DNA of 64,000 bases, taken from positions 24,313 through 88,312 of the forward strand of contig QPMI01000557.1 of NCBI GenBank assembly GCA_004431415.1. The letters run 5' to 3'. Origin of the DNA: Cyanophora paradoxa CCMP329 (Eukaryota > Plantae > Glaucophyta). Made by a program: the position numbers and the translations under genes. Positions 27,744 to 63,179 of the stretch are shown one piece after another; the first letter of the stretch is position 1, and each line of letters begins with the position of its first letter. The notes beneath the pieces are model-generated. The model ran no database searches. It saw nothing but the letters and a program-made list of their open reading frames with translations, and was not told the DNA's origin.

Positions 27744-28840
27744 CCCCGCTTTCACCGCCCTCCTCTATTCACAAGCAAATTCAGAATTCGAACCAGAATT
27801 CACTGCGCCGGGTCGAAGCGCTGCCGGACAAACCTTGGGGAGTGGGGACTCCACGGCCGGCCCGGCGGGAGACTGAGAGATCCCGCAAGCCTTGAAGCTC
27901 AATTGCAAGCTAGCGCTGTGGCCCGCGCCCGAGATCACGCGCGTGCGCCCGGGCCCGCACGGACATCGATGTTTCAGAATTATCGGGCCGCCGTCACGCT
28001 TACTTCATTTGCACGGCATGGTCAAAAAAAAACCGTTGAACCTCGTGATCAGCCGCTGAGCTTGAACTTGTGAACTTCGGAAGCCTTGAAGCCTCAGGGC
28101 CTTTTTCGAAGCCCTGCATGAGCTCGGCGGTGCGCGGGCACCAAGCTGCAAGCAAGTACAGGACTTTCGCTGATTGCGATATCGTCTCGCAGTTGCCACC
28201 AATGCTTCAGGCACAGAAGCTCGGCCTCGCTACGCCACGGACTACGCAGGCGACACGGGGGTCGCCTCGCGGCCGACGCCTCCATCTAGCAGAACGTCTA
28301 AGACCGCCAACAGCGAGGACCCATGGGGCGCTATCCTGAACACGAGCGAAAGCGCCCAGTCCCAGCAGCTAGGCAGGAAGCTCAACGAACGCTTCACAGG
28401 CCCGGTCATCTAGGGATTCAACTAGGGCTACCCATTTTTTCCTCTAGATGAGCACGAGTTGGCAGGCCGGCACCACTAGATGGCAAGCGGTTCCGGGAGA
28501 TCCTGTCCGGCGAGCAGCGGGCCGTGTAGCTCGCTAGCTATGTTCTGTTATTAGTATAAACACTGCCCGCGCCCGCGCCGCTGTCCGCTGCATGAGTGGC
28601 ATGTCAATGGTCCGACGGTCAGTGCGAGGAGCGGCGGGCCGCAGCAGCACGATAAGTCGCGACAGTTATGCTCTGGCTATCCATGGCCAGCGCCTCTGTA
28701 TGATCCCTATGTCCCCGCTCTCGAAGTGCGCGCGCCCGCGGGCCGGCGCGCGCCCGAAGTTCGCGCTCGCTTCCCTTAGGTGCGCCATCGGCTTTCTTTA
28801 GCGTTTCAGATGGTCCCTGGACTCTCCCGTTAGGTAAGGA

Positions 28841-29530
28841 AGGCCAGGTTCGCGCGCGCCGCGCGCCCTCGCCGCCTCCCCGCCCCGCAGAGAGCCGCCC
28901 CGATGCCCGCGCGCAGGCCCGATCAAGCCCCGCGACCGGCCGCCCGCCCGCCTCGCCCCGCCCCGCGCCGCCCCCCCGCCTCGCCGGCGGGGCCAAGGCC
29001 AGGTCCGCGCCGCCCTCGCCGCGGCCGCCTCCCCGCCCCGCAGAGAGCCGCCCCGATGCCCGCGCGCAGGCCCGATCAAGCCCCGCGACCGGCCGCCCGC
29101 CCGCCTCGCCCCGCCCCGCGCCGCGACCGCGCCGCCCCCCCCGCCTCGCCGGCGGGGCCAAGGCCAGGTCCGCGCCGCCCTCGCCGCGGCCGCCTCCCCG
29201 CCCCGCAGAGAGCCGCCCCGATGCCCGCGCGCAGGCCCGATCAAGCCCCGCGACCGGCCGCCCGCCCGCCTCGCCCCGCCCGCGCCGCGACCGCGCCGCC
29301 CCCCCGCCTCGCCGGCGGGGCCAAGGCCAGGTCCGCGCCGCCCTCGCCGCCTCCCGCCCCGCAGAGAGCCGCCCTAATTCCCGCGCGCAGGCCCGATCAC
29401 GCCCCGTGACCGGCCGCCCGCCCGCCCGCCCCGCCCCGCGCCCCCCCGGTGCGGGCCAAGGCCAGGGGCCAAGGTGCGGGCCGCCCGCCCCGCCCCGCCC
29501 CGGCGAGCTAAGGCCAGGTCCGCGCCGCCT
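28841..29530. repeat. GC-rich tandem array, ~153-165-bp unit, ~4 copies
   Basis: cagagagccgcc recurs at 28888, 29041, 29206, 29362. Confidence 0.9.
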
Positions 29531-29687
29531 GCCCCGGGGCCCCGCGCAGACCCGCAGCGTGCGGGTAGCTTTAGTTGGCAGTTAGCAGTACTAGTTAGCC
29601 GTAGGCATGCAGCTGGATTTTGTGTTTATAATTACGATGTCACAGTGTCCGGATCCGTGGCCGATACCGAAATTTTACATTTTAATT

Positions 29688-30135
29688 TGACATTTTCGGG
29701 GATGCATCTCAAGAATATCTGAAATTCTGGCGAGCACGAGATTCTGGCGGCAATTCGGGGCAAGGCGGTTTCCGGTTTCGACATTTAATTTTCCCGGAGA
29801 AAAGCCAACAATCTCAAGAATGTCAGAAATTCTGGCGAGATTCTGGCAACAATTCGGGGCAAGGCCGTTTCCGGTTTCGACATTTTCCCGTAGAAAAGCC
29901 AACAATCTCAAGAATGTCAGAAATTCTGGCGAGATTCTGGCAACAATTCGGGGCAAGGCCGTTTCCGGTTTTGACATTTTCCCGGAAAAAAGCCAACAAT
30001 CTCAAGAATGTCAGAAATTCTGGCGAGATTCTGGCAACAATTCGGGACAAGGCGGTTTCGGGTTTTGACATTTTCCCGGAAAAAAGCCAACAATCTCAAG
30101 AATGTCAGAAATTCTGGCGAGATTCTGGCAACAAT
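29688..30135. repeat. 94-bp tandem array (~4.5 copies), ending at the virus left junction
   Basis: ctcaagaat recurs at 29708, 29813, 29907, 30001, 30095; the last unit stops at ggcaacaat. Confidence 0.92.
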
Positions 30136-30695
30136 TGTTGTATACGCATGGACCTCACACCCGGGCAATTCCGCTTCGCTCCATAGCCCCCGATTCCATG
30201 CGTTTCAAGTGTATACCTCCAGCGTTTCATTAGTTATTTCACCATATACGTCTACCCCACCGATCCAGCTACGTCTACTATCCGATTCCCTAGGTCGAAG
30301 CCTAGCAATATCTGACGACTATACAAGGCAGAGGAGACAACAAGAATAGGCGAAGAGGAGCGCTGCCCCCATGAGCGCGGTCTGCAGAGCAACGTGGCAG
30401 AATAGTCTAGACGATATTAATGTGTACAATGAAGCTATCAGAGGAAACACGTTTAGCTTAATTTTAGGCGATAATGAAGTGTACATCGAAGCTAACAGAG
30501 GAAGCACGTTTAGGTTAATTTTAGGCGATATAGATGAGTACGATGAAGCTAACAGAGGAAGCACGTTTAGGTTAATTTTAGGCGAAATGATGAGAACATT
30601 GAAGCAACCAGAGGAAAAGCGTTTAGCTCTATCTAGGCGATAATGATGAGTACATTGAAGCACTTCGTGTCCCAAGAGCGCTCTGGTGCGGCCTC
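30136..30695 (+). repeat. Left terminal inverted repeat of the virus (560 bp), with four internal 56-57-bp tandem units
   Basis: Reverse complement of 57796-58355; I noticed one mismatch (30457). Internal units start at 30431, 30488, 30545, 30601. Confidence 0.96.
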
Positions 30696-30774
30696 TGGAG
30701 GTGTGTCGATGGCTTTATCTTTGTTTTAAATGTTTTAATTCGGAGGGTCAAGTTCACGAGAAAACTTTGCGGAC

Positions 30775-30890
30775 GCCGTGACGTGATGCTGTGACGTGGC
30801 GAGAAAACGGCGAGATACGTGACACACAAAAGATTGGCGCTGATAGTGCGCTGATAGTGCGCTGATAGCTAGCACTACTATAAATGCATT
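30775..30890 (+). promoter_or_regulatory. Candidate RNA Pol II-type promoter upstream of polB
   Basis: TGACGT at 30779 and 30792; ATTGG (reverse CCAAT) at 30833; three 11-bp gcgctgatagt repeats; TATAAA at 30879; polB ATG at 31031. Confidence 0.45.
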
Positions 30891-31030
30891 TGCGTACGCG
30901 TTTACACCGCCACCTTGCAGTTAGTTGCATGGCTTAAAGGTTTCTCGCATACATACTAGCAATCAGAGATTGACTGCGATTAATTCGCAAAAAGTTTTCG
31001 GCCATCCAATATTGTAGAGACCTATTCATA

Positions 31031-31725
31031 ATGGACAGGAACAATCTGAGAGCTGAAATTCGGAGTCTAGCGCAGGAGCTACACAATCTAAGGTACATTA
31101 ACGGAACATATTTGAACACACTGATGCGACTAGCAGACCCACAGAGGGGAACCCACACACAAAATCTTCGAGCTAATCTGTCAACATTGCTTAGACTTAG
31201 ACAGACGAACCGGCCGCAGCGCCCTTTGTACCAGTCATGGATAACAAGTCATTTTGAGAACGAACGCAATGCTCGAATTGAAGCCACGCGAGAGTTTGAT
31301 GAAATTGTAGAGTATGGGATCTCGAATTTATTTCGCGAGACAGGTCGAGGCGATACCGTGTTAAATTATACTCATTATGCATATCCGGGGTTGTTATTTA
31401 CCAAGGATGTTTTGGATATTGAACCGACTCCAATGCCAGAGCGGGTTAAAGAGATCACGATTGAGTTTCTGAGAGAGCTGCGAATTCCAGAGAAAATAGG
31501 ATCAAGCGTTCTAATTCGGTTTCATTTCGATAACTTTCGCATGTATCGCACTCAACTAGCAACAATCGAAGAGGGCACAATGCAGTCGCTCTTGTCAAAT
31601 CTGGCTGAAAAGATGGAACAATGGATGCTAGCGCAGCAGCCATATGAAGACAACGACCTTTGGCCAGTAGTGAAAATAGAGGTGCTCATTGCAGAGAACG
31701 CTGCAGGCGCACTTGGAAACGTACC
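31031..31725 (+). CDS. polB: N-terminal part of viral protein-primed DNA polymerase B (possible terminal-protein region), interrupted by the LINE
   Basis: ORF reads ...AAGALGNVP into the TSD and joins in frame with 38196 (KLPFNGK...) when the LINE and one TSD copy are removed. Confidence 0.88.
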
Positions 31726-32285
31726 CCCCGGAACCTGGCGAGGCACGTAGCGGCACAGCGGCAGCAGCGCGGAGCGTGGTACGCACCTTTTCTTAGCCTC
31801 TGCGTGATTCTGGAACTCTCCTGCCTTCGGGCGCAAACTCTCTGCCGTATGGCGCAAACTCGTGTTACCGTCCCTGTTGCCCTGCGTGCGCACTCACGTG
31901 TGCATTGCCTTGAACTCCGTTCGGCAGCCGAAGCTGAAAAGTACGAAGCCCTGGCCACCGGTGTCCGCACGGCGTCATCCGTCAGTTGTGCTTTCGCCTC
32001 TAACTCCTGTCAAGCATGTTCTCGTTACATTCTACGTCATACATACGCTCAGCTCAGCTCTCGCGTGCGGGCATCGACTTGGGCAGTTACCGTTACGTGG
32101 GTTGTGCGAAGTGACTCTGCTGACGGCCGATTAACTGCGCACTCTGTTATTTTTACAGCTGATGCCAAGCCAAGCTCTCGGGTTTTCGGCTCTCATCTCG
32201 TAACCCTTATACCTCTTTTCGTCGCTGGGACTGCCCCCCCGCCCAACATTCATCGCCTTCGTGCACCGCCGTGGCCTGATTAAAT

Positions 32286-34217
32286 ATGGTTAACATTGCA
32301 TCCTTGAATGTGGGAGGGCTCAACAGTCCCAACAAGCTTCAGAAATTTGTGGAACGTTGCCGGAAGTTTGCCATTGCCCACAAGATAGACATCCTCTGCT
32401 TACAGGAAACTAAGCTGCGGGAATTTGATGCTGCTGGCCACGCCTTAGGAAAGCTCGAAAAGATTGCAACTGCCTGGCGAGGCCCATTCTTCCACTCTGC
32501 TCCGACTCAATCCCGCTCCACTGGTGTTGCCATCATGGTCACACCCTTCTTCGCTGCAGAGCACGAGGTTACGCTTGCTCGTCAGGATTCTGATGGACGC
32601 TTTATATCCGTATCTATTGCGTTTAAGGCATCGGGTTCCTTCCCGGCTACGAAAGTACTCTTGGCTTGTGTCTATGCCCCCGCTAGTAATAACAGAGACC
32701 GCCTGGACTGGTGGCAGTCTTGTGTGCAGGCTGGGTATCTCTCCGCCACTATGCCTATGCTTCTTATCGGAGACTGGAATCACCGCACTCCAAAGCCTAA
32801 TTCCCTGCAGCGCTCGTACCTTCGCACAACGATGACCTTCCACCAGCTTGATGATCTTGCGAACCATGCTCCGCCGCCTCCTGCCGGCGAGCCTGCATCT
32901 GCTTTCGCCCCAACTTATTCGCGCATTGTTAGCCTTAAAGCTGTTAACTCGCGCCTCGACTTTGCTCTTGCAACCAAGTGGTTCCAGCGCCGCCTTGCCA
33001 CGTACTCGCTCCTAGCGCCGTCTGATGCGCTCCATCTTCAGCTTGACCACCGTATTGTTGTTCTCTCCTTTTCAGGCCCTCGTGTGCACCGTCACTCGCC
33101 CCGGTCCCGCGTGCAAGCGTTCCCGTACGATTTTGTCAGCAACCTGCCTGGACAGTACTCTCAGCGCGGCGACCCAGTCTGTCTTGACCCAGCTCTGCGC
33201 AAGCGTACGGAAACGCACTTAACTCAGTTCCTGAACACTGTCCTGCAAGAACGTGGGGACAATGGGGTAGTTGTTGATGCTGCCGCCTTTGATGACACAT
33301 GGCGCGCATTCTGTAAGCGGCTCTGCAAAATGGCACGTAAACACAGAGCACATGTGATAAGCAAGCTATACACGCATGAGCGCGCGGCGTACAAGGCGCT
33401 GGGCGATGTCGAGGTGAAGATCTACCGCTTGCCGCCCGGCTCCGATGCTGTCGCGCTGTACCGCGAGCGCACCCAGAGGCTTGAATCCCTGCGCGAACTT
33501 CAGAAGAAGGTCTCTCTCAACAATCGCCAGCTCGCTAGACTTCAGCACCGGCTCACGTTTGAAAGCGGCTCTAAGCGCGACTGGGCGCGGCTCGCCAAGC
33601 CCTCCTCCGTTGTTCCCCCGCCACTGCACTTCACCTCGGATGGTTCCACTGCTGTCGCTGTTGAGCCTGCCGCGGTTGCGAACTATTTGGCTAGGAAGCT
33701 TGAAGAACTGGGCGCTCCTACCCCTGCTTTCCTGTTGACTCAGACCTCTATCCTCGACTCTCTCTGCCCCCCTCCTGAACCCCCCGAGGACCCTACTGTT
33801 GATATCCCCCTTCCTGCTGCCCAGGATAATCCTTCCGCTGCTGCTTTCATTCAGCAATTTGGGGACGACCTCTTGCCTCATGTTCAGGGCACGGTCCCTC
33901 CTGCCTGGCGCACCCAGTCTAAAATCTCACCTGATGACGTAGCTTTTTCCATCAGTAAAGCATATGCCCATGGGGCGCCAGGCCCGGATGGGATACCCGT
34001 TGGTGTCTTTAAGATGCACATTAAACCTTGGTCTGTTTTCCTGGCTGCCTACTTCCAGAAGGTTGCTTTTCAAGGCTTCCTTCCTGATTTTATGCGTGAC
34101 TTGACCTATACTTTCATCTGGAAACGGGCTGGCCTACCCACTGATGCCTCGAAATACCGACCTATTGGAGTCTCTAACACGCTCCTGCGCCTTTTGAGCG
34201 GACTATGGTTACGCTAG
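32286..34217 (+). CDS. LINE ORF2 part 1: AP-endonuclease and RT N-terminus
   Basis: SLNVGGLN, DILCLQETK, GVAI, GRF, VYAP, IGDWN, SRLDF, DHR; then APGPDG and KYRPIGVSNT. Confidence 0.92.
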   Translation: MVNIASLNVGGLNSPNKLQKFVERCRKFAIAHKIDILCLQETKLREFDAAGHALGKLEKIATAWRGPFFHSAPTQSRSTGVAIMVTPFFAAEHEVTLARQDSDGRFISVSIAFKASGSFPATKVLLACVYAPASNNRDRLDWWQSCVQAGYLSATMPMLLIGDWNHRTPKPNSLQRSYLRTTMTFHQLDDLANHAPPPPAGEPASAFAPTYSRIVSLKAVNSRLDFALATKWFQRRLATYSLLAPSDALHLQLDHRIVVLSFSGPRVHRHSPRSRVQAFPYDFVSNLPGQYSQRGDPVCLDPALRKRTETHLTQFLNTVLQERGDNGVVVDAAAFDDTWRAFCKRLCKMARKHRAHVISKLYTHERAAYKALGDVEVKIYRLPPGSDAVALYRERTQRLESLRELQKKVSLNNRQLARLQHRLTFESGSKRDWARLAKPSSVVPPPLHFTSDGSTAVAVEPAAVANYLARKLEELGAPTPAFLLTQTSILDSLCPPPEPPEDPTVDIPLPAAQDNPSAAAFIQQFGDDLLPHVQGTVPPAWRTQSKISPDDVAFSISKAYAHGAPGPDGIPVGVFKMHIKPWSVFLAAYFQKVAFQGFLPDFMRDLTYTFIWKRAGLPTDASKYRPIGVSNTLLRLLSGLWLR

Positions 34218-35812
34218 CCAATCCAATCTTGCAACTCATCATTCCTGAAGATCAGTTTGGATTTGTACAAGGTCGGGATGTTCATAAAAACATCTTTGCA
34301 GTGCTGGCCACGTATACACGCATCCGCTACGCCAATTATGATTGTGTTATTGGGTTCGACTCGGATCTCAAGTCTGCCTACGATCTGTTGCTCTGGGTTA
34401 TTATGGCGCTCGTTCTCCATGTTCAACAGTGGCCCTGGCTTATCCGACGGATGCATCACTGCTTGTACAACCCTAGAGCTCCCCTCCGTGCACGTGTATT
34501 TGCGAATGGGCTCTTCTCTTCTGTTTTCTCACGTCTTGTGGGCACCATTCAAGGTGGTCCCTGGAGCCCAGTTTCTTTCATTCTCTCGATCAGCCCTCTA
34601 CGTTCTCTCTTGCTTTCGCTCACTGATATACCCCGCCCTGTTGGCACCCCCCTTGTCCAGTTTGCTGACGATATTTATCAACTGTTCCTGCTCCGCGCCC
34701 AGGGGCTATCTCTGCGTGACTCCCTCTTGGCTATCCATGCACGTTTTGGCTCTTTTAAACCTCTCTCTGGTCAGCATTTATCTATGGAGAAATCTCTTGC
34801 AATCGTCCTCAGGGAACCTGCTCCCTCATCTTTGGATCTTGATCCTGCTGATCCCCTGCCTTTCCCTGTTCTTCGCGCCTCTGAGCTCGACCCCGCCTGC
34901 CATAAGCAGCTGGGTTTCCCGCATCAGCTCCTTCTTGATCGTGAGCATCATCAATCATGGAACATGATTCAGTATAAAGCGACCTTCTTTACGGAGACAG
35001 CTGTTGATTTCCAGTCCTCCCTTCTTGGACGGGGTCGCATAGCCTATGCCTTCTGTCAGGGCGTATTGAGCTTCTATATTCGGGCAGTTCCAGCACCCCC
35101 TCTTATTCTCCGGGCTATCTCAAAATCCCTACAGACCTTCGTCTGGAAGCGTTCTTCGAATTCTGATGCGTTCATCTTACCCCATCAGGGCATGACCACT
35201 GCTTCGTGTCGGCCTGTATCTCTCGGTGGTCTCGGAGCACCCTCCCCTGAACACTTCCAGCTGGCCTTTGCCGCAAACTCTTTGGAATCGTGGCTTGCTT
35301 CCCCGGCAGCTCTTCCTGGTCGAGAAATTATTGAGGCTTTCACGGAGAATGGTGGTTTCGGGCTCTGGCTTCCTTTTCTCAACAGGACTGATCGCCTGGT
35401 GAAACCACTGTGGCCTCCGCCTGCTGACCCGTTCTTTGCCATCTTCGAAGCTTGGCGGACTATTTTCGATGTCAAGAAGCCCTGCTGCGCTTGGGATTTC
35501 CTGCGTATGCCGATCATGCACCCCTGGTATAAGAAAGACACGTACTATGAGCGTGACTTCACATTTTCGCTGCTTTTCCGTCTCGGCTTCCGTTTCAACT
35601 ATCAAATTTGGGATTTCTCTGGAGAACATACCTCTATGTCGAGCCCTCCTATCCCGAGCAACTGCGCGACCAGCTGCATGCGCTCAATAATCGACTTGCG
35701 CAAGAGGTTTGGCGTTGTGGTAAAACTGCAGACTGGAAACACGAACCTGGAGGTCTCGCTATCGGCCCTTTCTCGAAACTTGCTGCTGAGCGCGTCTCGC
35801 TCCAGGGAGTAG
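34205..35812 (+). CDS. LINE ORF2 part 2: reverse transcriptase core (-1 frame relative to part 1)
   Basis: QFGFVQGR, DLKSAYD, GTIQGGPWSP, QFADD, EKS, GGLG. Confidence 0.93.
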   Translation: MVTLANPILQLIIPEDQFGFVQGRDVHKNIFAVLATYTRIRYANYDCVIGFDSDLKSAYDLLLWVIMALVLHVQQWPWLIRRMHHCLYNPRAPLRARVFANGLFSSVFSRLVGTIQGGPWSPVSFILSISPLRSLLLSLTDIPRPVGTPLVQFADDIYQLFLLRAQGLSLRDSLLAIHARFGSFKPLSGQHLSMEKSLAIVLREPAPSSLDLDPADPLPFPVLRASELDPACHKQLGFPHQLLLDREHHQSWNMIQYKATFFTETAVDFQSSLLGRGRIAYAFCQGVLSFYIRAVPAPPLILRAISKSLQTFVWKRSSNSDAFILPHQGMTTASCRPVSLGGLGAPSPEHFQLAFAANSLESWLASPAALPGREIIEAFTENGGFGLWLPFLNRTDRLVKPLWPPPADPFFAIFEAWRTIFDVKKPCCAWDFLRMPIMHPWYKKDTYYERDFTFSLLFRLGFRFNYQIWDFSGEHTSMSSPPIPSNCATSCMRSIIDLRKRFGVVVKLQTGNTNLEVSLSALSRNLLLSASRSRE

Positions 35813-36861
35813 CTCTCTGTCGCGTTCGCCTTCTTCCTGACACACAGCTCGCTTTCCATGAGATTGACGTGCCCTGCAATGTTTCGATTGACAGTCCCGT
35901 TGCCCTCCCCGATGTGCTTGCGATCCGGCCCGCGGCCCGTGCGATCGACTTCATTCCCGTGCCTGCGCATGCGCTTAGCCTTGTTAAGAACGCTTGCAAG
36001 TTGTCCTCCATGCCCGCACTCGTCCGGTTCCTCATGAAGTCGTTGCAGCTTTCCGACCTTGCACTCCGTCCGCTGCCACCGTCGTCTTCCCGTACGTTTG
36101 CGTTCTACTCTGACCGCGAGAACATCAGCGATCGCTCAAAGGAAGAGCTGCGCCTCTCTAAGTCGGTTGCGTACAAGCTGCCTGCTGCCCCGTCGCGTTT
36201 CACGGTTCACGACGTGTACAAGTACCTCTCCTCCCACGCTTTCATGGCGCCGACGACCGCTGAGACTAAGTGGCGTGCTGATCTCTCTCCTAAGTTCCTC
36301 TGGCCGCCAGGCTACGATGCTCGCACCGATCGCTTCCCCTGGTTCAATACGGTTATCCCCGACCTGCGCTACGCTCTCACGCAGCGCGTCCTTGACGGCT
36401 ACTTTGCTCTGCGCTACAACACCCTCCGCACATCGTCCCGCATGGCTGCTATGGCTGCGCGTGATCTTCAGCGTCCCGCTTCGGCGAATTTGCTTGACAG
36501 TGAGCTTCTCTCTTCGCTATGTCCGGTCTGCCACCGGTACTGCAACGCACTGCACGTCTTTGCTCTTTGCCCCGTAGTGCAGCAGTTTTGGTCGCTTATC
36601 TTCCATGCCTGCAGCTCCAGCCGATGCCCATTCCTTCTGCACGATTCGTTGCCTGGCTGCTCACTGGCTCGGTCCGTTTCTCTGATACTTGGATGTTTTT
36701 GCAGAACTGGGAGTGGCAGGTTGTTCGGATTCTTGGTCTGCACGTCATTTTCCGCTCGTATTCTCTGGCCTATCGTACAGGTCGCTCTGAAGCTGCTGCT
36801 ACGTTTGCGATGGACCCTGACATACAGCTGCCCCTTACGCCTTCCTCCAAAACCGGTTTGA
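35608..36861 (+). CDS. LINE ORF2 part 3: zinc-binding (zf-RVT-like) region
   Basis: FTVHDVYKYL...KW...W and CPVCHRYCNALHVFALCPVVQQFW, typical of L1-clade ORF2 C-termini. Confidence 0.8.
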   Translation: MGFLWRTYLYVEPSYPEQLRDQLHALNNRLAQEVWRCGKTADWKHEPGGLAIGPFSKLAAERVSLQGVALCRVRLLPDTQLAFHEIDVPCNVSIDSPVALPDVLAIRPAARAIDFIPVPAHALSLVKNACKLSSMPALVRFLMKSLQLSDLALRPLPPSSSRTFAFYSDRENISDRSKEELRLSKSVAYKLPAAPSRFTVHDVYKYLSSHAFMAPTTAETKWRADLSPKFLWPPGYDARTDRFPWFNTVIPDLRYALTQRVLDGYFALRYNTLRTSSRMAAMAARDLQRPASANLLDSELLSSLCPVCHRYCNALHVFALCPVVQQFWSLIFHACSSSRCPFLLHDSLPGCSLARSVSLILGCFCRTGSGRLFGFLVCTSFSARILWPIVQVALKLLLRLRWTLTYSCPLRLPPKPV

Positions 36862-37919
36862 AGACGGCCACTCTGATGTCTGCCCTGTTTCGCGAGCTCG
36901 ACGATTTTATGGACATGCTTCCTCGCCGTTTACCTCGTTTCAAAGCTACTTACGTCCGTGGGGACTTCCGTTTCATCTCTACAGCTGACCCATCTCACTC
37001 TTCGTTTTGTTCTAACCTCTTGGACGCGGCTCGTGCTTATGACCATACCCTAGCCTCTTTTGAGCACTGCGAGCATATCACTCAGCCTGCCCCTAGCCCC
37101 GATTTAGCTCCTAGCTCCCTTGTTGCTCAGTTTGCCTATGCCAGTGCACGGCCTGTTCTATTGCAGCGGCTCGAAAAAGAGGATCTTGAAGGCTATGAAT
37201 CCTCCCCTGACACTGGATCAGACTCCTCAGAGCTTTCCGACCTGGGCCCTGATGAACCTGATGATTCTTCTACAAGCTCCTCTTCGGATGACGACGACCC
37301 TCCTGAGGCACCGGACCCTGCTCCTGCTCCTGACCCTCTACTTCCTCCGTCTCCTTCGCCCTCTCACACTCCCCCTCACCCCCCGCCGGACTTTGACACT
37401 GAGGACGAGCCGCCTCTTCGCCGTCGCCGTGTCGATGCTTTGGACCCTCCTGCGCCAGCTCCTGGCGTTCTCGATGATGATGCTGATGATCCCAGCTCGC
37501 CTCCGCTCTCTCCTCAAGTTATTATTGACCTCCTTGATCCCGAACTTGAAGCTTTATTTCTTTCTTCCCCTGAAATTGCTGCTGATATTACTGCGGATGC
37601 TCCCAATGTTGGGGGCCATTCGTCGTCTCTTCCTTCTTCCTCTGTTCCTATGGACACTGATCCTGTCTTGGCTCCTGATTTCAACCTGAAGCGCCGTCGA
37701 CCCTCTACCCCTGCTCCTCCTTGCCTCTCGGATGCCTATGGTTACCCAGACGGTACTATTGACCCATCTTTTCTTCCTTCCGTTAAACGTTTGCATCTTT
37801 CCTCTCCTGCTGACCTTTCAGTTCTCAGTGATGATTCGGGTTCTCCTGTGGTGCTCATTGACTATGATGCTGAAGCTGATGCCATGGACCTTCAATTTCT
37901 CTCCTCGACTGGGGTTTAA
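36519..37919 (+). CDS. LINE ORF2 part 4: acidic, Pro/Ser-rich C-terminal extension
   Basis: Long open frame in -1 relative to part 3; D/S/P-rich, with basic patches LRRRR and KRRRP. Confidence 0.6.
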   Translation: MSGLPPVLQRTARLCSLPRSAAVLVAYLPCLQLQPMPIPSARFVAWLLTGSVRFSDTWMFLQNWEWQVVRILGLHVIFRSYSLAYRTGRSEAAATFAMDPDIQLPLTPSSKTGLKTATLMSALFRELDDFMDMLPRRLPRFKATYVRGDFRFISTADPSHSSFCSNLLDAARAYDHTLASFEHCEHITQPAPSPDLAPSSLVAQFAYASARPVLLQRLEKEDLEGYESSPDTGSDSSELSDLGPDEPDDSSTSSSSDDDDPPEAPDPAPAPDPLLPPSPSPSHTPPHPPPDFDTEDEPPLRRRRVDALDPPAPAPGVLDDDADDPSSPPLSPQVIIDLLDPELEALFLSSPEIAADITADAPNVGGHSSSLPSSSVPMDTDPVLAPDFNLKRRRPSTPAPPCLSDAYGYPDGTIDPSFLPSVKRLHLSSPADLSVLSDDSGSPVVLIDYDAEADAMDLQFLSSTGV

Positions 37920-38195
37920 AGCTCTAAACAGGATCGGGAATACCCCAGGCCGGCATTAGGAAGAGGCCCGCATTGGGATTTCGCCGATTGTTTTCCAGGT
38001 TTGCGTGTATGAGCGCCGGACCGCCGGGGCATACATGGTGAACTGTATAGGCGCCCGTCTGCGCCGCCACTACCCTTGTCTGGTTGGTTCACTGTCGATT
38101 GTGCTTCGGGCCTTCGGGTCCTTCGCCTTTCGTCAAAACCGCACAACCGGCTTGGGCGTGTCTTATACATACTCTTCTTCTTCTGGAAACGTACC

Positions 38196-41926: not shown

Positions 41927-42188
41927 CAACACATTGTTGGAGGGACTCTAGAAACGCTAACTTTTCGTAAATTCGACTGCGATAGCGACGATTTGCCTCT
42001 AGATGATTCTCGCTGTTGTTCTGCTGGTACCTCGAGCTGGCTTCTATGTGTCGTCTGCGAAATTCTGGATCTTCATTGTAACGACGGCGATGGTATTCTG
42101 CACGCTTTGCTTTTCGTGCAGCAGCGATTTCAGGGGTTACAACAATTGGTTTGCGACCACGCTGTTTAGTTGATGATTCAACATCCAT
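41913..42188 (-). CDS. Small basic viral hypothetical protein
   Basis: 91-aa ATG ORF with RGRKP and EYHRRRYNEDPEFRRR; converges on and overlaps the integrase stop. Confidence 0.6.
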   Translation of the reverse strand: MDVESSTKQRGRKPIVVTPEIAAARKAKRAEYHRRRYNEDPEFRRRHIEASSRYQQNNSENHLEANRRYRSRIYEKLAFLESLQQCVVIAL

Positions 42189-42297
42189 GTTTGCGGGTTT
42201 TTCGTCACAAACAATGTGCGAAATCTTTTTATGGCATAAATCGCAGGTTTGTGTTGCGTTAAAAATCGAACATAAAATCCGAGATATAATTCAAAGA

Positions 42298-42582: not shown

Positions 42583-42626
42583 AGAGATCGCAATCTCAGA
42601 TTGTAAAGTCGCAGACAAGCCGCCAG

Positions 42627-43766: not shown

Positions 43767-43775
43767 CTTATTTTA

Positions 43776-47878: not shown

Positions 47879-47895
47879 GGAAAGTCGCCAGAGTT

Positions 47896-48136: not shown

Positions 48137-48145
48137 CAAACAAAC

Positions 48146-52800: not shown

Positions 52801-55344
52801 AATACAACCCTTTCCGGTGTTGTTACAGATGATTACCTTACCAATAAAGGATATCTTACGACCGCGGATTTAAGCAGTTATGCAACCGATGCAGAATTAG
52901 CGGCGGCACTTGCGAATTATCTACCTCTCACAGGTGGAACTGTAACAGGAACTGTGAATGCTACCACTTTACAAATTGGTGGAACCACAATACCAAAAGG
53001 TTACGATTTTGACCAATTAGATGTGGTTTCGACAGATAGAAGCGCAAATAATTGGACTGTCAATTGGAGTCCGAGAACCGGACAAACAGGATGTTATACA
53101 ACACCACAAAATGATGAAGATTGTAGCGCTTGTTTTATGCGTTGGACAGTTCCAGAAGGTATGAAATCGTTTTACATCCAGCACATGCCGTGGTATAATT
53201 GTAGATACTTTGATATTTACGGGCAAACTGTGAATGGATATCAACATTTCTTAAAACGTATAAATGCATATCAGGAAATCCAGGCAGTCAATCAAGATGG
53301 AACACACAATACTGTTTTGTTTGCCTCAATCAACTGTGAGTTTTACACAAAGATATATATTCAAGGTCGAAAAGGTCGCATTCATCTTACGGGGGTTTTC
53401 GGTTGGAGTAGACAGAGAGCAACCGACAATGAATTGGGCATGATCTCTTGGGATAATATATTTAGCAAACCGTCATTTTATTCAGCCGCAGACCTCCCAG
53501 CAACAGCAAAATGGACAGTGGACAATTGGTTAAAATCAACAGACAATATAGAAAGATTTTGGTTTGGAAATGGTAATACGACATATATTCGTGGTTATGG
53601 AAACTCTGATAATGTTTGTGTGGAGTTTCGCAATGGCTCCGATTTAGCATTATTAAAATCATATAATAATGGTAATTTATGGGTAGGAGGAACTTTAAAT
53701 GTTACTACAAGTGTAAGCGCACCATCAATTACAGGAACTACTATAAATGCAACAACCATTGATGTTGCAACATTAAAAAGAAATGGTTATGACGTTCCGA
53801 AATTCTACGCTTTTGATGACACAGTAGCAGGTGGTGCTTATCATTCATCGGGCGGAACTTGGTCGGTTGGGTATGGAACAGCTTGGGATCCAGGATATAA
53901 TTATGGTAGTCATGTGTATAATAGTGAAAGTCAAGATGAAGTGTCTACAACAACTTGGATTCAGTATACAATTCCCACCGCATTAGTGAATGGAACAGCA
54001 TACCTTACACATTTACCATGGTTTAATTGCCGTTACTTTGAGATTTGGGGAGTCCGTAGTAATGGGGCAATAGTATTTATTACAAGAGTAAATAACTATC
54101 AGCCACATGATGGTAACGCAGACGGTCACCACAACGGGTTAAACAATGTCCCAATTTTCCTTGCCGGTCGATTTACTCACCTCCGTATTTATCCCAGAGT
54201 TGGAAGAGTTCACATTATGGGAATTGGTTTTACGCATGATCGAGCTAATAGTAGTTCATATGGTGGTCACACCGGTTTTATTCATTGGAATAATGTTTAC
54301 AGTAAACCTACTATTCCTACATCCTATCTGTCGTTAACAGATGTCACAAATTCAATTGGAAACATTACCAGTTTTGATGTGGTTTCAGGATGGAATAGTG
54401 CAACTGTTTATTTTATAGGATCTTGGGGAACAGGTTGGAAACCTACAACAGACAATCCAGTAGAAGGATTTTATAGCCACATCGAAAATGATACCACAAG
54501 TGGTGACTACATGCAAATGGAAGTTCCCAGTGGAATGCGAACCTGTCATGTCCAGTATTTCTGTTCGACGAATTGTAGATATTTTGATATTGGTGGATAT
54601 CGAAACAATAGATGGAATCACATAATGAGAGTAAATACGTATCAAAATATTTCAAATGTAGCCGATTCAAATTGGCATGATGGGTTAACATGGACATCCT
54701 TCTTTTGTGCGAATTTCTCACATATTCGATTTATTGCAAGAAAGGGAAGATGTCACGTTGGGATGATTGGATGGACAAAAGAAGTAGGAAGAACCTCACC
54801 AGCAAATGGTATGATCAGTTGGGATAACATTTTTAGTAAACCGCTGTCGGCAACTTGGGCTACCGGAGATTGGATAAACTCCGGTGATAATTACCCGAGA
54901 ATGTATTTTGGGACAGGTTCTACTACGTATATTAGAGGACATGCAACAACAGTAGTAGAGTTTCGAAATGCATCCGATGTTCACGTAGCATTTATAAATG
55001 ACGATGGTTACATGTGGGTTAGAAACTATCTCGGACAAGGTAGCGATAGAAGATACAAAACCGATATTAAAAAGATAACCGGCGCTCTTTCAGCAATTGA
55101 AAAATTAGAAGGAGTGAGTTTTAAACGAATCGGAAGTGAAAAAGACGGAACAAGATTAGGTTTAATTGCGCAAGATGTGCAACAGGTAATACCAGAAGTT
55201 GTATGTGCGAGCAATAAAGATGGTTACTTAGCTCTCGAATACACGGGTTTAATTCCAGTTCTCATAGAAGCCGTTAAAGAATTATCTAAGAAATGCAAAG
55301 GTCTACAAGATCAAATAGATCAATGGCGCAGCCAGGCTGCTTAA
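49871..55344 (+). CDS. Giant modular fibre/spike protein (~1,820 aa) with HxH repeats and C-terminal peptidase S74 chaperone; split by a -1 frameshift near 50860
   Basis: ORFs 49871-50959 and 51037-55344 join if gtccagat were gtcccagat, since the acidic EEYLPDG repeats start at the shift. Nine 12-aa HxHxKADITDFA units; C-terminal SDRRYKTDI...GLIAQDV...LIPVLIEAVKEL. Confidence 0.85.
51940..52272 (+). repeat. Coding 36-bp tandem repeat x9 (HxHxKADITDFA)
   Basis: Read directly in the ORF translation. Confidence 0.92.
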
Positions 55345-55740: not shown

Positions 55741-56595
55741 ATGGGCGAATATAATCGGGTTCAGTTACCTATCTATTCACTTGGATCCCCTGCAAATCAT
55801 TTTCGCCAACACGAAGTCAATGATGAGGTTCGCGGTCTGGAATCCACTGAACGACCTAATTCGAATGGTAACTCTTTTGACAAAAACTCAATGATTCGAG
55901 TAAAAGAACTTCGAGCTGACAAGAACTCAGGTGTGGTTAAAACAACTCGACTACTCGTAAGCAATGCTAACTTCTTCCAACCAATAAATGGAGGTCCTGA
56001 TGCTTATGGTGTTGATCTGAAAGCCCTTGACTTCGATAAGAATTCTGCTGCTGTTACTGTGAGATCAGGAGGAGCTTTTATTGGCGGTGGCTGCAGAATT
56101 TCAGGTCAACTCTCTTCTTCGATTGCATACAATGATGTCCCGGATTCCCTTGAACAAAATGTTGAAAATCCACAACGAATTCGGTTCTATACACCAGTTG
56201 CACAGCAACCTTTTCTTCACTTCTATGTTGCATCATCTGTCTCTCTTGAAAATTCAGAGTTGGTTTCCATTACAGGAACTGATCGTGTGAGAATGAATAT
56301 TCCTCTTCCCACAGCAATGCTTTCGATGTGCAGAGCAAACAACAATCAACCAGGTCACAATTACCTATTCTTTGTTCAAGCATCAAACCATTTTGGTAGA
56401 GGATATTGTGTTTATAACAATTTGACATTTACTTATGATTTGTTTGTCACTGAGGTAGGAGTTTATAATACTATGATAATTGGACTGAGAACAGATATAG
56501 CTGCTGTTTCAGCACTTCGTGGTGTGAATATTGCTGATATTTTTACAACCGGATTTTACCAGGAGCCAGATGTTATTGACGATCCTACTCCGTAA
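55741..56595 (+). CDS. Viral hypothetical protein, paralogue A
   Basis: 284 aa; shares GLESTE, ELRxDKNxGVVKTTxLLVxNANF and GGAxIG with the next ORF. Confidence 0.8.
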   Translation: MGEYNRVQLPIYSLGSPANHFRQHEVNDEVRGLESTERPNSNGNSFDKNSMIRVKELRADKNSGVVKTTRLLVSNANFFQPINGGPDAYGVDLKALDFDKNSAAVTVRSGGAFIGGGCRISGQLSSSIAYNDVPDSLEQNVENPQRIRFYTPVAQQPFLHFYVASSVSLENSELVSITGTDRVRMNIPLPTAMLSMCRANNNQPGHNYLFFVQASNHFGRGYCVYNNLTFTYDLFVTEVGVYNTMIIGLRTDIAAVSALRGVNIADIFTTGFYQEPDVIDDPTP

Positions 56596-56618
56596 AATTT
56601 ATATTACTTTAATGTAAA

Positions 56619-57443
56619 ATGGCTGAAATTGAACGCATCCTTACAGCTCAGCTCTCACTCGCCGCCCCAGCTACCCACGTTTTACAACACGCTACTTTTG
56701 ATGATGTGGAAGGTCTTGAATCAACAGAAGTTCAGCCGACATTAAACACCTTCGGATCTACACATAAACTTCGATTGCAGGAACTCAGATGTGATAAAAA
56801 TAATGGTGTGGTCAAAACTACAAAGTTGCTAGTTACGAATGCTAATTTTAGCGCAAATTATGGCAATCCAGATAGTTACGGCGATCCTATTTCGACTTAC
56901 TCTTTTGAATCTCGTTCTGGAGCTATAAACTGTCGAAATGGCGGCGCATATATTGGTGATGGTCTTCGTGTTGGGGGAACAATCGGAGCTCCTCTCTTCG
57001 TGAACGACACGCCAAACCCGATCGACAATCTGACGCGGATTCGCACCTATGTCCCCGGTATGAATGCCCCCTATATAATCAAGATATTCCCCATTGTTGT
57101 TAATGAGCAGACATCAGTAGTTGATTCTCTGGTTGAAATTGGTGATCATTATAAGGTAGTAGTCGATATTCCACCAGATATTTATGCACTCTGCCAGGTT
57201 GAGGGTGGTACTCCGAATATTTCAGTTGTGATCACTCCATATGATAATTTCGGGATCGCGTATCATGGTGTAAATTTCGGCCTTGAAGACTACCAGTTCT
57301 TGGTGAGAGCAACCAGGTTTGGTATCTACAAATGCATCCTTTATGCTGAAAGAACCGATGCTATTGCTAAACAGAACACATATGCAGAATATGTTGGTAC
57401 AAACAGGTATTTTCCTATATTCGGCAGCGATACGGCTCCATAG
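56619..57443 (+). CDS. Viral hypothetical protein, paralogue B
   Basis: 274 aa; paralogous to 55741-56595. Confidence 0.8.
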   Translation: MAEIERILTAQLSLAAPATHVLQHATFDDVEGLESTEVQPTLNTFGSTHKLRLQELRCDKNNGVVKTTKLLVTNANFSANYGNPDSYGDPISTYSFESRSGAINCRNGGAYIGDGLRVGGTIGAPLFVNDTPNPIDNLTRIRTYVPGMNAPYIIKIFPIVVNEQTSVVDSLVEIGDHYKVVVDIPPDIYALCQVEGGTPNISVVITPYDNFGIAYHGVNFGLEDYQFLVRATRFGIYKCILYAERTDAIAKQNTYAEYVGTNRYFPIFGSDTAP

Positions 57444-57795: not shown

Positions 57796-58355
57796 GAGGC
57801 CGCACCAGAGCGCTCTTGGGACACGAAGTGCTTCAATGTACTCATCATTATCGCCTAGATAGAGCTAAACGCTTTTCCTCTGGTTGCTTCAATGTTCTCA
57901 TCATTTCGCCTAAAATTAACCTAAACGTGCTTCCTCTGTTAGCTTCATCGTACTCATCTATATCGCCTAAAATTAACCTAAACGTGCTTCCTCTGTTAGC
58001 TTCGATGTACACTTCATTATCGCCTAAAATTAACCTAAACGTGTTTCCTCTGATAGCTTCATTGTACACATTAATATCGTCTAGACTATTCTGCCACGTT
58101 GCTCTGCAGACCGCGCTCATGGGGGCAGCGCTCCTCTTCGCCTATTCTTGTTGTCTCCTCTGCCTTGTATAGTCGTCAGATATTGCTAGGCTTCGACCTA
58201 GGGAATCGGATAGTAGACGTAGCTGGATCGGTGGGGTAGACGTATATGGTGAAATAACTAATGAAACGCTGGAGGTATACACTTGAAACGCATGGAATCG
58301 GGGGCTATGGAGCGAAGCGGAATTGCCCGGGTGTGAGGTCCATGCGTATACAACA
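57796..58355 (-). repeat. Right terminal inverted repeat of the virus (560 bp)
   Basis: Reverse complement of 30136-30695. Confidence 0.96.
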
Positions 58356-59459
58356 AACAATGCCTCCGACCTGGCTTGAGAATTCGACATTTTCGCTGGA
58401 GAATTCGATATTTTCGCGCGCCCCCGGCCCTTGCCCCCACCAGCTGTGCGTGCAGCCCGCAGCGCCGGCCCCCGACCCCCGCCGCTGCCCGGCACGCTCT
58501 GGGCCCCGGCACGCCTCGCGCGCCCCCCGGCCCCCGCCTCCCCACCCGGCGTCCCCCTCACCCAGCTGCACATGCAGCCCGCTGGCGCCAGGTACCGGTG
58601 CAGGTGCTCACGCAGCCTGGCAGCGGGCCTCGAGGGAGTGGTGGGGCACAGGAGGGGCCGGGATGGGCCCGCGGAACCGTGCCCGTTCTCCTTCTCCCCA
58701 GGGCGGGCCCCGCGCCTGCGTCGGAGCACTGTGGAAGAACATGTATTATACGTGGATTCAGAATCTATAAGATCAGCGGGGGTGCCCGGGCCCTAGGGGG
58801 ATGGCAATGGCGAGACCAGGGCACCATGTGCCATCCACATCCGGGATCCGTTTCTTTTCGAACTGATATCTTTAGATGGAAATTAGGTTTATTAAATCAA
58901 AGTACATCATAAGAACGACAATCAAGAGGGCTTTCAGAATATATAATAAGGTCGGCGCTCGCAAGTTAACCTAACCCGTAAAGTTGAAAAGGCTGCCAAA
59001 ACGTCTGACGAGCTCTCAAACCTGACATCTGATCATGATCATGAGTCTCCCCCAACGTTTTAACTCTGTCATCATGAAAACTGACCTCGAAGGGTGACTA
59101 CATTACGACTCAACAACAGCCTTTATATTATACATAAAGACTTAAAAAAGCCTCATATATCACCCATTCACTGGGCATAGCTTGTTGGAACGAGATTTCG
59201 GAAATAATTGCGGCCGTGCCCTGACGTGGCCCACCATACCCCACCGCCGTGCCCCAACGTGCCCCACCGTGCTCGCTGCCGTGCCCCGACGTGTCCCCTA
59301 CGTAGACACATTACTCTTGAACATCGCCACACGCATGTGAGCCGCGCCGCCGCCTGCCAAGCCGCCTGCGCCGCCCGGCGAGACGCGCGCCGCCCGCCAC
59401 GCCCTCGCCCCGCCCGGCGAGCCGCCGCACCGCCGCCCGCCGAGCCCCCTTCCTGTGCA

Positions 59460-60740
59460 GCGAGCCCCGCCGTCGCGCGCCAGAGCCGCCGCCCCGCCCG
59501 CGGCCTCGCCGCCGCCCGCCGCGCCTCCGGCCCGTGCGGCGAGCCCCGCCGTCGCGCGCCAGAGCCGCCGCCCCGCCCCGAGAGCCTCGCCGCGGCCGCC
59601 GCGCCTCCGGCCCGTGCGGCGAGCCCCGCCGTCGCGTGCCAGAGCCGCCGCCCCGCCCCGCGGGCCTCGCCGCCGCCCGCCGCGCCTCCGGCCCGTGCGG
59701 CGAGCCCCGCCGTCGCGTGCCAGAGCCGCCGCCCCGCCGCGAGAGCCTCGCCGCCGCCCGCCGCGCCTCCGGCCCGTGCGGCGAGCCCCGCCGTCGCGCG
59801 CCAGAGCCGCCGCCCCGCCCCGCGGGCCTCGCCGCCGCCCGCCGCGCCTCCAGCCCGTGCGGCGAGCCCCGCCGTCGCGCGCCAGAGCCGCCGCCCCGCC
59901 CCGCGGGCCTCGTCGCCACCCGCCGCGCCTCCGGCCCGTGCGGCGAGCCCCGCCGTCGCGCGCCAGAGCCGCCGCCCCGCCCCGCGGGCCTCGCCGCCGC
60001 CCGCTGCGCCTCCGGCCCGTGCGGCGAGCCCGCCGCCGCCCGCCAGAGCCGCTGCCCCGCCCCGCGGGCCTCGTGGCCACCCGCCGCGCCTCCGGCCCGT
60101 GCGGCGAGCCCCGCCGCCGCCCGCCAGAGCCGCCGCCCGCCCCGCGAGCCTCGCCGCCGCCCGCCGCGCCTCCGGCCCGTGCGGCGAGCCCCGCCGTCGC
60201 GCGCCAGAGCCGCCGCCCCGCCCGCGGGCTCGCCACCGGCCGCCGCGCCTCCGGCCCGTTGCGGCGAGCCCCGCCGTCGCGCGCCAGAGCAGCCGCCCGC
60301 CCCGCGGGCCTCGCCGCCGCCGCCGCGCCTCCGGCCCGTGCGGCGAGCCCCGCCGCCGCCCGCCAGAGCCGCTGCCCCGCCCCGCGGGCCTCGTCGCCAC
60401 CCGCCGCGCCTCGGCCGTGCGGCGAGCCCCGCCGCCGCCCGCCAGAGCCGCTGCCCGCCCCGCGAGCCTCGCCGCCGCCCGCCGCGCCTCCGGCCCGTGC
60501 GGCGAGCCCCGCCGCCGCCCGCCAGAGCCGCTGCCCGCCCCGAGAGCTTCGCCGCCGCCCGCCGCGCCTCCGGCCCGTGCGGCGAGCCCCGCCACCGCGC
60601 GCCAGAGCCGCCGCCCCGCCCGCGGGCCTCGCAGCGCCCGCTGCGCCTCCGGCCCGTGCGGCGAGCCCCGCCGTCGCGCGCCAGAGCCGCCGCCCGCCGC
60701 GAGAGCCTCGCGCCGCCCGCCGCGCCTCTCCCTGTGCGAC
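59460..60740. repeat. GC-rich tandem array, ~80-bp unit, ~16 copies
   Basis: cgagcccc recurs about every 79-81 bp from 59461 to ~60662; this explains the long ORFs in all six frames. Confidence 0.93.
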
Positions 60741-63179
60741 GAGCCGCGCCGCCGCACGCCGCGCCGCCGCCGCCGCGCCGCCGCCCGCCGCGCTGCCACC
60801 CGGCCCGCTCAGCGAGCGGCCCATGACCTGTCTATGAGAAAACTTCTAAGCGTGGTACGAACGTTGATTTCGGTTGCTGCAAGGCCGGGTCCCTGCATGG
60901 ATCGCGCTGCGTCAGCATCTGCGCTGTGTCGCCGAGTCGCCCTGCGTGACGAGTACTCAGCCCGGGGACTCATAGGAGACATTGTACCAGAAGTGGCACG
61001 CACGAAGCTTTTCGCTCGCTAGCAGCTCGGGCTGTGTACCGGTTGCCTCTCGCCATATCGCGCTGCAACTACGGTACTCTCGCGGGGCGCCAGTTCTTGG
61101 TACTTTCTGCAACTACGCGCCGCTGCGGCAGTTGCCGCGCGGTAGTAAGTGGCGGCAGTTGCGGCGCAGTTGTACGCTGCAGTACGCAATTTGTACCGGG
61201 GTACACATTCATAAGACCTTCGTCAACGGCACTGCACAGGCTGGCTTCCTCCAGCTGACCGGGCTGGCTGACGCCGAGCAGCAGCGTCGAGCCGCGACTC
61301 CTAGCGTGCGTTTGCCTCTTGTTTATGCGCAGATTCTGTCCTGTTCACGCACATGTCGGACTAACGGACACCTGCCGCGGTCGGTCTCCCGCTGTACACG
61401 TGGCTCCAGCGTGTGCCACGCTCCCTAACTAGCTTTTTAGAGTGGACGGCGATCCTTCCGAGCGCCGAGACGCGAATTCCGTCGCCTTGCCAGGTCCGAA
61501 CAGCCGACATCTGCCTAATCCGTGCCCAACAGGCCTTCCTGACCATCGGAAATGCGCATTGATTGTGCTACTGTGCGCAGAAGCCCTCGGTTGTGCAGGT
61601 CCGCCTTGATCTTGTTGGGACTTCCGTTTGCAGGCCCGAGGCTTGCCCATAAGGCCCTACTGGACATCAATGATGATCTGACTTCCGAAGTTCGCTGTGC
61701 AGGAGCCTTCGGTTGCTCACCCGCGTTCCGCGTTCGGCGGTCTCTCTGGCTCCAGGTACGCTCGCGCCCCAGGGCGCGCTGCGCTTACTAGCAGTGTGTT
61801 CCATCCTATTTCTAGCCTATCGGCTTGCAGACCCTGAGAGCCGCTGCCGCCCCGCCCCCTCGCCCGGAGCCGCTTGTAGTGACTTCCCGCGTGCAGGTAC
61901 CTCTGGCGACACCCCGGCGCGCGCGCCAAGGTGCAAGTGGCGGGCGACAGTGCTACATACAGCCCGTTTAGCTTGTAGATAGCTAGCTACGTATCTGTAG
62001 CTTAGTAGCTCGCTAGCTAGCTAGCTAGCCGTGGTTGTACAATTGATACCGTAGTACTGGATCTTGTTGCAGGGCGCGGGTGCGGGATGCAGGTGCGGCG
62101 CGGCAGCAGGCGCAGGTGAGCACGAGATGAGCGCGAGATGAGCCCCTAGATGAGCACGAGATAGGAAAAAAAGAAAAAAAACTCATCTCGTGCCCACCTC
62201 GATGTGTCGTTTTGCCCTAGATGAGTGCGAGCAGCATCTAGGGGTTTTACCTAGGTGAGCCCTAGATGACCGGGCCTGTGCTTGGACTCGCTCGGGTCGC
62301 GCGCACAACCCTCAAGCGCGTCGGCTGCAGTCAGCGTATCTTCGAGTGCCTCTCTTACTGCTGCGGGACCACCCGACGATGGGCCGGAGGCGAGGCGCGC
62401 GCAGCGGAGGTGGCGCGGCGGGAGTCGCAGGTGCGGTGGATGGAGACGGCGTGCGGTGGATGGAGACGGCGTGCGAGGCCGAGAAGTAGACCTAGGGTTT
62501 CGATCTCGAGCTTCGGTATTCGATTTCGATTTTCGACGTCACTTGCCTATCTGTCTGAGCCCTTACGACTCGACCGGCGGCCCACTGCTAGCCAAACAGC
62601 CGCTAGGGCTAGTCCAGATGTCGTTGGTCGTGTCTGAAATGCATGAGACAGCCTGCAGCAGCGACTTTATTTCGGAATCATAGCTCCCCTAGAATTCATT
62701 TGTAGGCCTGCCGCTGCGCATGTCCGAGGCTCCTCCGAGGTTCATCGTCCGACGGTCCGGTCATCTGACTCAGCCTGGCAGTGATGCCATCATCACTGAG
62801 TCAGATGATCCCGGAGTCCGATGATCATCAGAGTATCTCACTCATGATCAGGCTTTTATTTCTTGATCATCATGGCATCGATACATATCATTTCGAAGTC
62901 GGAAATTCCAAGTTTCCAAGTTTCAAGCCTTGCCCGGCGGCCATCATATGCATGGCATGGCCAGGCTTGCACTGCAATTTATGTTGGAGCCTGGCCCTGT
63001 GGCTTCCGAACTCAGTGACTGCATTTAAAATTTGCCACGCGCTTGGCGGCAGGTTCACGGTTTCGGATTGCGCGGACACAAACTTGACAAGCATGTGCTT
63101 CATGAATTCGAAATTGCGAGCCGAAGGGTTTCGAGTCTGCAGATGGCTGACGAAGCTCAAGTAGAGGGCGAGGTCGGGG

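Follow-up and report, generated by a model that had tools for sequence, protein, structure and literature searches.

How does one locus come to hold a retrotransposon inside a virus inside a DNA transposon, and does such a stack move as a unit or result from separate insertions? We present the case of a 64,000-nucleotide stretch of the alga Cyanophora paradoxa CCMP329 (contig QPMI01000557.1 of assembly GCA_004431415.1, positions 24,313 to 88,312 of the forward strand), which we call the window and number from its first letter. It contains a 33.9-kb stack with, from inside to outside, a long interspersed nuclear element (LINE, 31726-38183), a polinton-like virus (PLV, 30136-58355) and a DNA transposon without recognised genes (28395-62280). 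The nest is real: its ends, gene content and nesting order are all confirmed. With a probability of about 0.7, we read it as three separate insertions into silenced repeats, the stack itself likely not being a unit of movement. The initial annotation of the locus missed one point: the LINE likely sits between the terminal-protein (TP) and vOTU protease domains predicted for the viral polymerase gene pPolB, which may have been split and not destroyed.

Three nested elements and their boundaries

Each layer has its own ends and its own target site duplication (TSD). The outer element ends in a perfect 21-bp inverted pair (28395-28415 and 62260-62280) that starts with CACAG and gives the element CAC..GTG ends, flanked by CTT at 28392-28394 and 62281-62283. 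Allowing up to three mismatches, this terminal inverted repeat (TIR) has two matches in the window and none in 100 shuffles. The virus TIRs (30136-30695 and 57796-58355) are identical at 559 of 560 bp, have TG..CA termini, and are flanked by the 6-bp AACAAT at 30130-30135 and 58356-58361. Only the right AACAAT is informative as a TSD, because the left copy is part of a 94-bp tandem unit with eight occurrences in its array. The continuation of that unit across the virus site is not significant: 8 of 1000 control stretches from the host and 60 of 1000 from the virus align at least as well. The LINE is flanked by the 12-bp TGGAAACGTACC at 31714-31725 and 38184-38195, the only two occurrences of this sequence. 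Removing the inserts in silico leaves an outer element of 5660 bp and a virus of 21750 bp. These values reproduce the approximately 5.66 and 21.75 kb given in the initial annotation, whose layers, boundaries, element types, nesting order and three integration signatures are likewise borne out by the TIR, TSD and gene checks, with the caveat on the left AACAAT. The G+C content changes stepwise between layers, being 71% in the host, 55% in the LINE and 43.5% in the virus. CpG ratios (0.88-1.16) do not separate the layers, and no Rfam families or tRNAs were found within the window.

For Cyanophora paradoxa, a likely haploid assembly of about 100 Mb that was built from long reads has been published (PMC6704402). 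We compared short-read contigs from four runs (X1, X2, X10, X13) with positions 29560-49500 and 27700-30330, using read depth as a rough guide only and not as a copy number. In all four runs a contig joint leads from 31713 to 38184, passing over 6470 bases, with 12 letters in common; it represents the polB site without the LINE. The initial annotation had proposed to look for viruses with intact polB. The depth of this joint, summed over its two forms, is 616, 1609, 700 and 770 units in the four runs, and that of the lowest joints in the same runs is 34-51, 110-126, 41-47 and 48-53; the ratio suggests roughly 14-16 LINE-free sister sites. At the outer left edge, one contig ends at 28394 and another starts at 28395 in all four runs, without the 30-base overlap that is usual between neighbours. 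We read this break as a two-sided branch, where the flank continues otherwise elsewhere and the element end has a further entry. The initial annotation had called for spanning long reads. Amongst the short-read joints and contig ends listed for the two stretches compared, support covers the LINE-free site and the outer left edge, and does not extend to the junctions of the virus, those of the filled LINE site, or the right end of the outer element.

The features of the locus are as follows.

28120-28394, no strand: low-copy flank repeat (about 2-3 copies), a 275-bp contig with exactly these ends, its last 3 bp being the left TSD
28395-30135, no strand: left arm of the outer element, with 21-bp TIR, subterminal CTAGATG motifs and two tandem arrays; contig boundary at 28395 in 4/4 runs
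30136-30695, forward: virus left TIR, 560 bp, with internal 57-bp repeats and a TG start
31031-31750, forward: pPolB 5' part, about 231 viral codons followed by 7 LINE-encoded codons and a stop; likely TP domain
31714-31725, forward: LINE left TSD, 12 bp; empty-site joint in 4/4 runs
31726-38183, forward: L1-like LINE with an open 5' frame, apurinic/apyrimidinic endonuclease (APE), reverse transcriptase (RT), zinc knuckle and acidic tail, 3' untranslated region (UTR) and (CTT)n tail
38184-38195, forward: LINE right TSD, 12 bp, a sequence repeat
38185-40827, forward: pPolB 3' part; likely vOTU, zinc fingers, exonuclease and palm (DNA_pol_B_2, 2.9e-59)
40766-41926, forward: rve-type integrase (rve_3, 4.5e-9; transposase PHROGs)
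42627-43148, forward: HNH-AP2 endonuclease (HNH_3, 6.9e-11; AP2, 8.7e-6)
43776-44522, reverse: A32-like packaging ATPase (Pox_A32, 2e-9)
44543-45931, reverse: double-jelly-roll (DJR) major capsid protein (MCP), by Foldseek; 64% identity to a Cyanophora paradoxa protein
45977-46978, reverse: likely minor capsid protein 1, by position and putative penton-like motif
46961-47878, forward: likely minor capsid protein 2, by position and putative penton-like motif
48146-49846, reverse: patatin-like phospholipase with a C-terminal extension (Patatin, 8.3e-26)
49871-55344, forward: fibre-like gene with a Peptidase_S74 end, in two overlapping frames with a break near 50850-50950
55741-57443, forward: two paralogous genes of no known function, 34% identical in mutual comparison
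57796-58355, reverse: virus right TIR, with a CA end
58356-62280, no strand: right arm of the outer element, with AACAAT (58356-58361), an 80-bp x18 array (59341-60781), subterminal motifs common with the left end, and 21-bp TIR
62281-62283, no strand: right CTT TSD, by sequence check

The outer transposon and its flank

The outer element likely works like a non-autonomous EnSpm/CMC transposon; with no transposase match, its placement in CMC is tentative. Of the features that define EnSpm/CACTA (CMC), we find the termini with short TIR and TSD, as well as the subterminal motifs; no CMC transposase was found in it, none of the 83 open frames of the non-array parts passing a Pfam cut-off. Subterminal motifs and internal tandem arrays are typical of non-autonomous EnSpm/CACTA elements. 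Here the CTAGATG motif is present at both ends, which also have 14-15-bp words in common; in a control, 14 of 2000 host pairs had a common 14-mer holding at least 5 A/T. The left-arm arrays are a 165-bp unit x3.8 (28840-29442) and the 94-bp unit x4.2 (29737-30136), the latter ending in the left AACAAT. Chapaev3 elements have a 3-bp TSD, and a Chapaev3 in place of an EnSpm/CMC element is possible. The TIR has no match in metagenome contigs. Long open reading frames (ORFs) over the arrays were rejected as genes, being frames across tandem repeats, and we disregarded a 9-mer that occurs in the arrays of both arms, since GC-rich DNA likely yields such a match by chance.

The depth of the outer arm is 1.5-1.9x that of the adjoining host contig, and about 1.3-1.4x the flank yardstick in X2 and X13. 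Variant arm contigs carry two single-nucleotide polymorphisms (SNPs) in X2 and eight inserted bases in X10, and suggest that there is another copy with slight divergence, not a fresh duplicate. The copy number of the outer element is likely about two. The first 111 bp of the element (28395-28505) form a contig of their own, at about 2x the interior depth in X2 and X13 and not in X1 and X10, which reflects either more elements with the same end or GC-dependent coverage. The 94-bp unit (29737-30136) also occurs as a variant at higher depth with other flanks, which means that related elements elsewhere carry this repeat; the unit has in addition a 17-bp match at window positions 497-513.

The outer element itself interrupts a small repeat, as the contig of the flank is 2.2-3.9x deeper than the adjoining host contig in all four runs. 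This repeat starts at 28120 and resumes from 62284 onward, with a gene for a DEAD-box helicase on one side and a likely opposite-strand gene on the other. No TIR, Rfam family or tRNA was found in it. The flank repeat may be a fourth tier of the nest.

The polinton-like virus

The Pfam scan of 24 viral frames identifies pPolB, the rve integrase, the HNH-AP2 endonuclease, the A32 ATPase, the patatin and the S74-tipped fibre. The capsid protein is recognised by its predicted fold: the model of the 462-aa MCP, at a modest pLDDT (predicted local confidence) of 55, resembles the double-jelly-roll capsids of NCLDV and has the PBCV-1 capsid as best Foldseek match (E 4.5e-17) amongst 162 matches at E<=0.001, and the MCP falls in Capsid_N clusters in Atlas. 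Its sole close relative is the Cyanophora paradoxa protein at 64% identity, and no relative of MCP or pPolB was found in viral contigs. The two minor capsid candidates have no Pfam or PHROG match and are not alike by BLASTP; both calls are based on position and on a putative penton-like N-terminal motif. For the capsid maturation cysteine protease, which marks polintons/Mavericks sensu stricto and virophages, Pfam and PHROG found no family amongst the scanned viral ORFs, where a remote protease could escape. What is present corresponds to PLVs (Preplasmiviricota): a double-jelly-roll MCP, an A32-type ATPase, and a length of 14-40 kb with long TIRs and a 5-6-bp TSD. On this gene content, the virus is classified as a PLV of the catalogued Cyanophora kind. 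Its coding fraction is about 90%.

Some further observations concern individual viral genes. If its two frames are counted as a single gene, the fibre-like gene has about 1830 codons; it contains internal 66-bp and 36-bp repeats. In the patatin gene, contigs of all four runs differ by one base at 48378, likely an assembly error. Contigs in all four runs also join 44498 to 48107 and 48139 to 44544 (window 44498-48139), which we read as sister viruses that carry the capsid block (MCP and the two likely pentons) rearranged or elsewhere. Other contig joints skip the HNH-AP2 region (41841-43764).

The LINE

The LINE has an AP endonuclease upstream of the RT, a TSD and a simple-repeat 3' tail, and no long terminal repeat, as L1/Tx1-like LINEs do. 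The endonuclease is called by Pfam (Exo_endo_phos, 1.8e-11) and Atlas alike, RVT_1 (2e-6) is just under its cut-off, zf-RVT is weak (E 0.2), and there is a match to L1 ORF2p at 1.8e-5. Homolog searches found no relatives, which is weak evidence. The 5' frame has 185 codons with an ATG at 31849. The APE, RT, zinc knuckle and acidic tail are spread over four frames (32286-37919), with frame changes at 34191, 35631 and 36607, where the short-read contigs each time have an additional base. Two of these breaks coincide with short base runs, which makes errors of the long reads likely and an intact ORF2 of about 1880 codons possible; copy-specific changes are a possible alternative. After the zinc knuckle there is an acidic, proline-rich extension of about 430 codons (36609-37919) with no Pfam or PHROG match.

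The contig depths are those usual for a LINE, with many copies truncated at the 5' end and few long ones. For the 5' part (31952-32275), the contigs listed in each run are an exact one at about 2x the yardstick and another, with 22 differences, at about 1x, and this copy is one of roughly three in which the 5' part is preserved. In the LINE body, exact or near-exact contigs are at about 3-6x, and the bin with the 3' end is at about 50-120x the single-copy yardstick; the LINE family has therefore likely spread far beyond viruses.

A polymerase gene probably interrupted between two domains

The pPolB of this virus phylum is a polyprotein that comprises TP, vOTU protease and polymerase and is likely cleaved between the first two (10.1101/2024.03.18.585575). 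Both flanks of the LINE are in one and the same polB reading frame. Immediately ahead of the insertion, the left piece is predicted to form a helix, then a Pro-Tyr loop and a strand; the right piece has vOTU-type motifs with a Cys at 38260 and a His at 38542, 26 and 120 codons past the insertion. In-frame ATGs for the downstream part are found at 38035, in the LINE 3' UTR, and at 38227. The TP and vOTU calls come from motif order read by eye; Pfam and PDB searches gave no match for either domain, and a single-sequence fold model of the vOTU-exonuclease part has a pLDDT of 31. Judged from these motifs, the LINE likely sits in the linker between TP and vOTU, at a predicted natural domain boundary, and therefore pPolB may be split rather than destroyed. 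This virus copy would presumably be unable to replicate alone.

Serial insertion and its alternatives

In the serial reading, an EnSpm/CMC transposase acting in trans would have moved the 5.66-kb element into an intergenic copy of the small flank repeat, leaving CTT. A 21.75-kb PLV of a multi-copy family would have inserted itself where the 94-bp array ends, by means of its own rve integrase, with a 6-bp duplication as the trace. A young near-full-length L1-like LINE would have inserted into pPolB through target-primed reverse transcription and duplicated 12 bp. The enzymes used and the timing of the three insertions are what we infer; the near-identical TIRs indicate that the virus integration is likely recent. 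The stack would have been kept since each insertion fell in a repeat, where it would be of little cost to the host. Repeats of Cyanophora paradoxa carry methylation (PMC12344493). Some observations weigh against this reading. The outer TIRs and TSD are perfect, such that the ends could still be used. The depths of the exact LINE 5' contig (about 2x) and the outer arm (about 1.3-1.9x) would also match a duplicated whole nest. The LINE falls in a putative linker of about 25 codons within a virus that is about 90% coding, a position that selection for function would also yield. And amongst the contig ends listed, neither a virus-free outer copy nor the empty host site is seen directly.

In an unlikely alternative, the LINE split pPolB at its cleavage linker into an adenovirus-like gene pair (TP; vOTU-pPolB), and the LINE-bearing virus still replicates, may have arrived with the LINE, and carries a rare full-length copy of it. 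The end of the left piece is as described for terminal proteins, the downstream part has Cys and His motifs of vOTU type and two in-frame ATGs, a TP|vOTU split is known in adenovirids and one coral polinton, the remaining core genes all have open frames, and the LINE 5' part has about two exact copies. On the other hand, this is a single post-hoc site with domains called by eye, a low-confidence model and no Pfam or PDB match; the downstream half has no known promoter, and the genome would be 130% of unit length. The initial annotation had suggested that the LINE might travel in virions, an idea that finds no support here: the reactivated Cafeteria virophages, in the part of that report covered, carried no Ngaro retrotransposon (PMC10945749). 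We find it quite improbable that the whole 33.9-kb composite is or was moved by an EnSpm/CMC transposase in trans, as a Teratorn-like vehicle without its own transposase. Perfect TIRs and TSD would allow it, at least two entries into the left end are seen, the first 111 bp are deeper in X2 and X13, and large cargo can be moved in constructs, Teratorn itself having 41-182 kb (PMC6431247). Still, efficiency drops above about 6 kb of cargo (PMC6431247), no second composite is seen amongst the contigs listed, and the second arm copy has SNPs and indels; that this copy has diverged while the virus looks young counts against the stack having moved. The mobility in trans proposed in the initial annotation is thus left unsupported, with no transposase match and a likely second copy that differs. 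Least credible, and very improbable, is that the nest is partly a mis-assembly of multi-copy elements, or that the outer ends belong to unrelated elements. The single-base differences from the short-read contigs at frame breaks, the absence of the virus junctions amongst the contig joints listed, and a left AACAAT that lies in a tandem unit while the right flank has no clear continuation of that unit would all fit such an error. Yet three independent TSDs match, the window has no further TIR copy, the outer ends have subterminal motifs in common, and reads support both the polB site without the LINE and the left edge of the outer element.

Other repeats in the window

Outside the nest, a small structured repeat at positions 7274-7640 is possibly a miniature inverted-repeat transposable element. 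Within it are an exact tandem duplication of 64 bp (7445-7572), an inverted copy of 22 bp and, with a CACTG start, an inverted pair of 18 bp; the repeat has no clear TSD. Positions 1-1000 have low GC (52%) and are gene-poor, possibly the end of another repeat element.

Comparison with known systems

The initial annotation knew of no such combination. In a mostly open-access literature, with supplements that may list this locus covered only in part, we found neither the exact LINE-PLV-DNA-transposon combination nor a LINE located at the TP|vOTU boundary; three-tier nests, and a Ngaro in pPolB, had already been published. The closest case is that of Cafeteria burkhardae, where Ngaro1 lies in EMALE03 in Ngaro4, and where one Ngaro is in pPolB (PMC8547959). 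Both are three-tier nests whose middle layer is an integrated DJR virus, and in both systems a retrotransposon in pPolB is known. In Cafeteria, the virus is a virophage and the retrotransposons use a tyrosine recombinase, whereas here we have a PLV, an APE-type LINE and a DNA transposon as outer layer. In Halocafeteria seosinensis, PLVs and virophages occur with MULE and LINE elements, PLVs in host transposable elements and the reverse, and viral shuttling has been proposed (10.64898/2026.07.28.741278). The DNA transposon there is a MULE, unlike the EnSpm-like element here, and the main text has no LINE in a PLV in a DNA transposon with all TSDs.

For the virus, the Cyanophora paradoxa assembly has 366 MCP hits (PMC10120064 Table S4), and 156 glaucophyte endogenous viral elements (EVEs) include no protease, 49 pPolB, 85 rve, 37 S74, 89 lipases and 4 RT, by machine-parsed columns (PMC12220804 Table S6). 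The gene set of our virus matches theirs; in contrast, this locus and its nesting are not described in the rows covered, and the MCP is 64% alike to the sole named protein. Retrotransposons inside PLVs (PMC12220804, PMC10120064) and small transposons inside viruses (PMC6004678, PMC11957031) have been described. For the outer element, EnSpm transposons have 5'-CAC..GTG-3' ends with a 3-bp TSD (PMC12730594), as found here, although our ends read CACAG, not CACTA or CACTG, and there is no transposase for placement. Tx1 in Tx1D of Xenopus is also a LINE within a non-autonomous DNA transposon; Tx1 is target-specific, unlike our LINE, and no virus is involved in the parts covered (PMC4494074).

The plain nest is a clean teaching case, with three integration chemistries at one locus, in an alga whose PLVs are catalogued yet little described. 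The two more speculative readings have known counterparts. Teratorn is likewise a virus framed by DNA-transposon TIRs, with the difference that it has its own piggyBac transposase and proven movement (PMC6431247); if true, transport of a virus by DNA-transposon ends in trans would add a second way for such composites to arise. The separate TP and vOTU-pPolB genes of adenovirids and the Stylophora polinton break at the same inferred boundary (10.1101/2024.03.18.585575), whereas here the putative split, read from motifs, is caused by a 6.5-kb LINE. If functional, a TP/polymerase split made by a LINE would provide a mechanism for a repeated step in polinton and adenovirus evolution.

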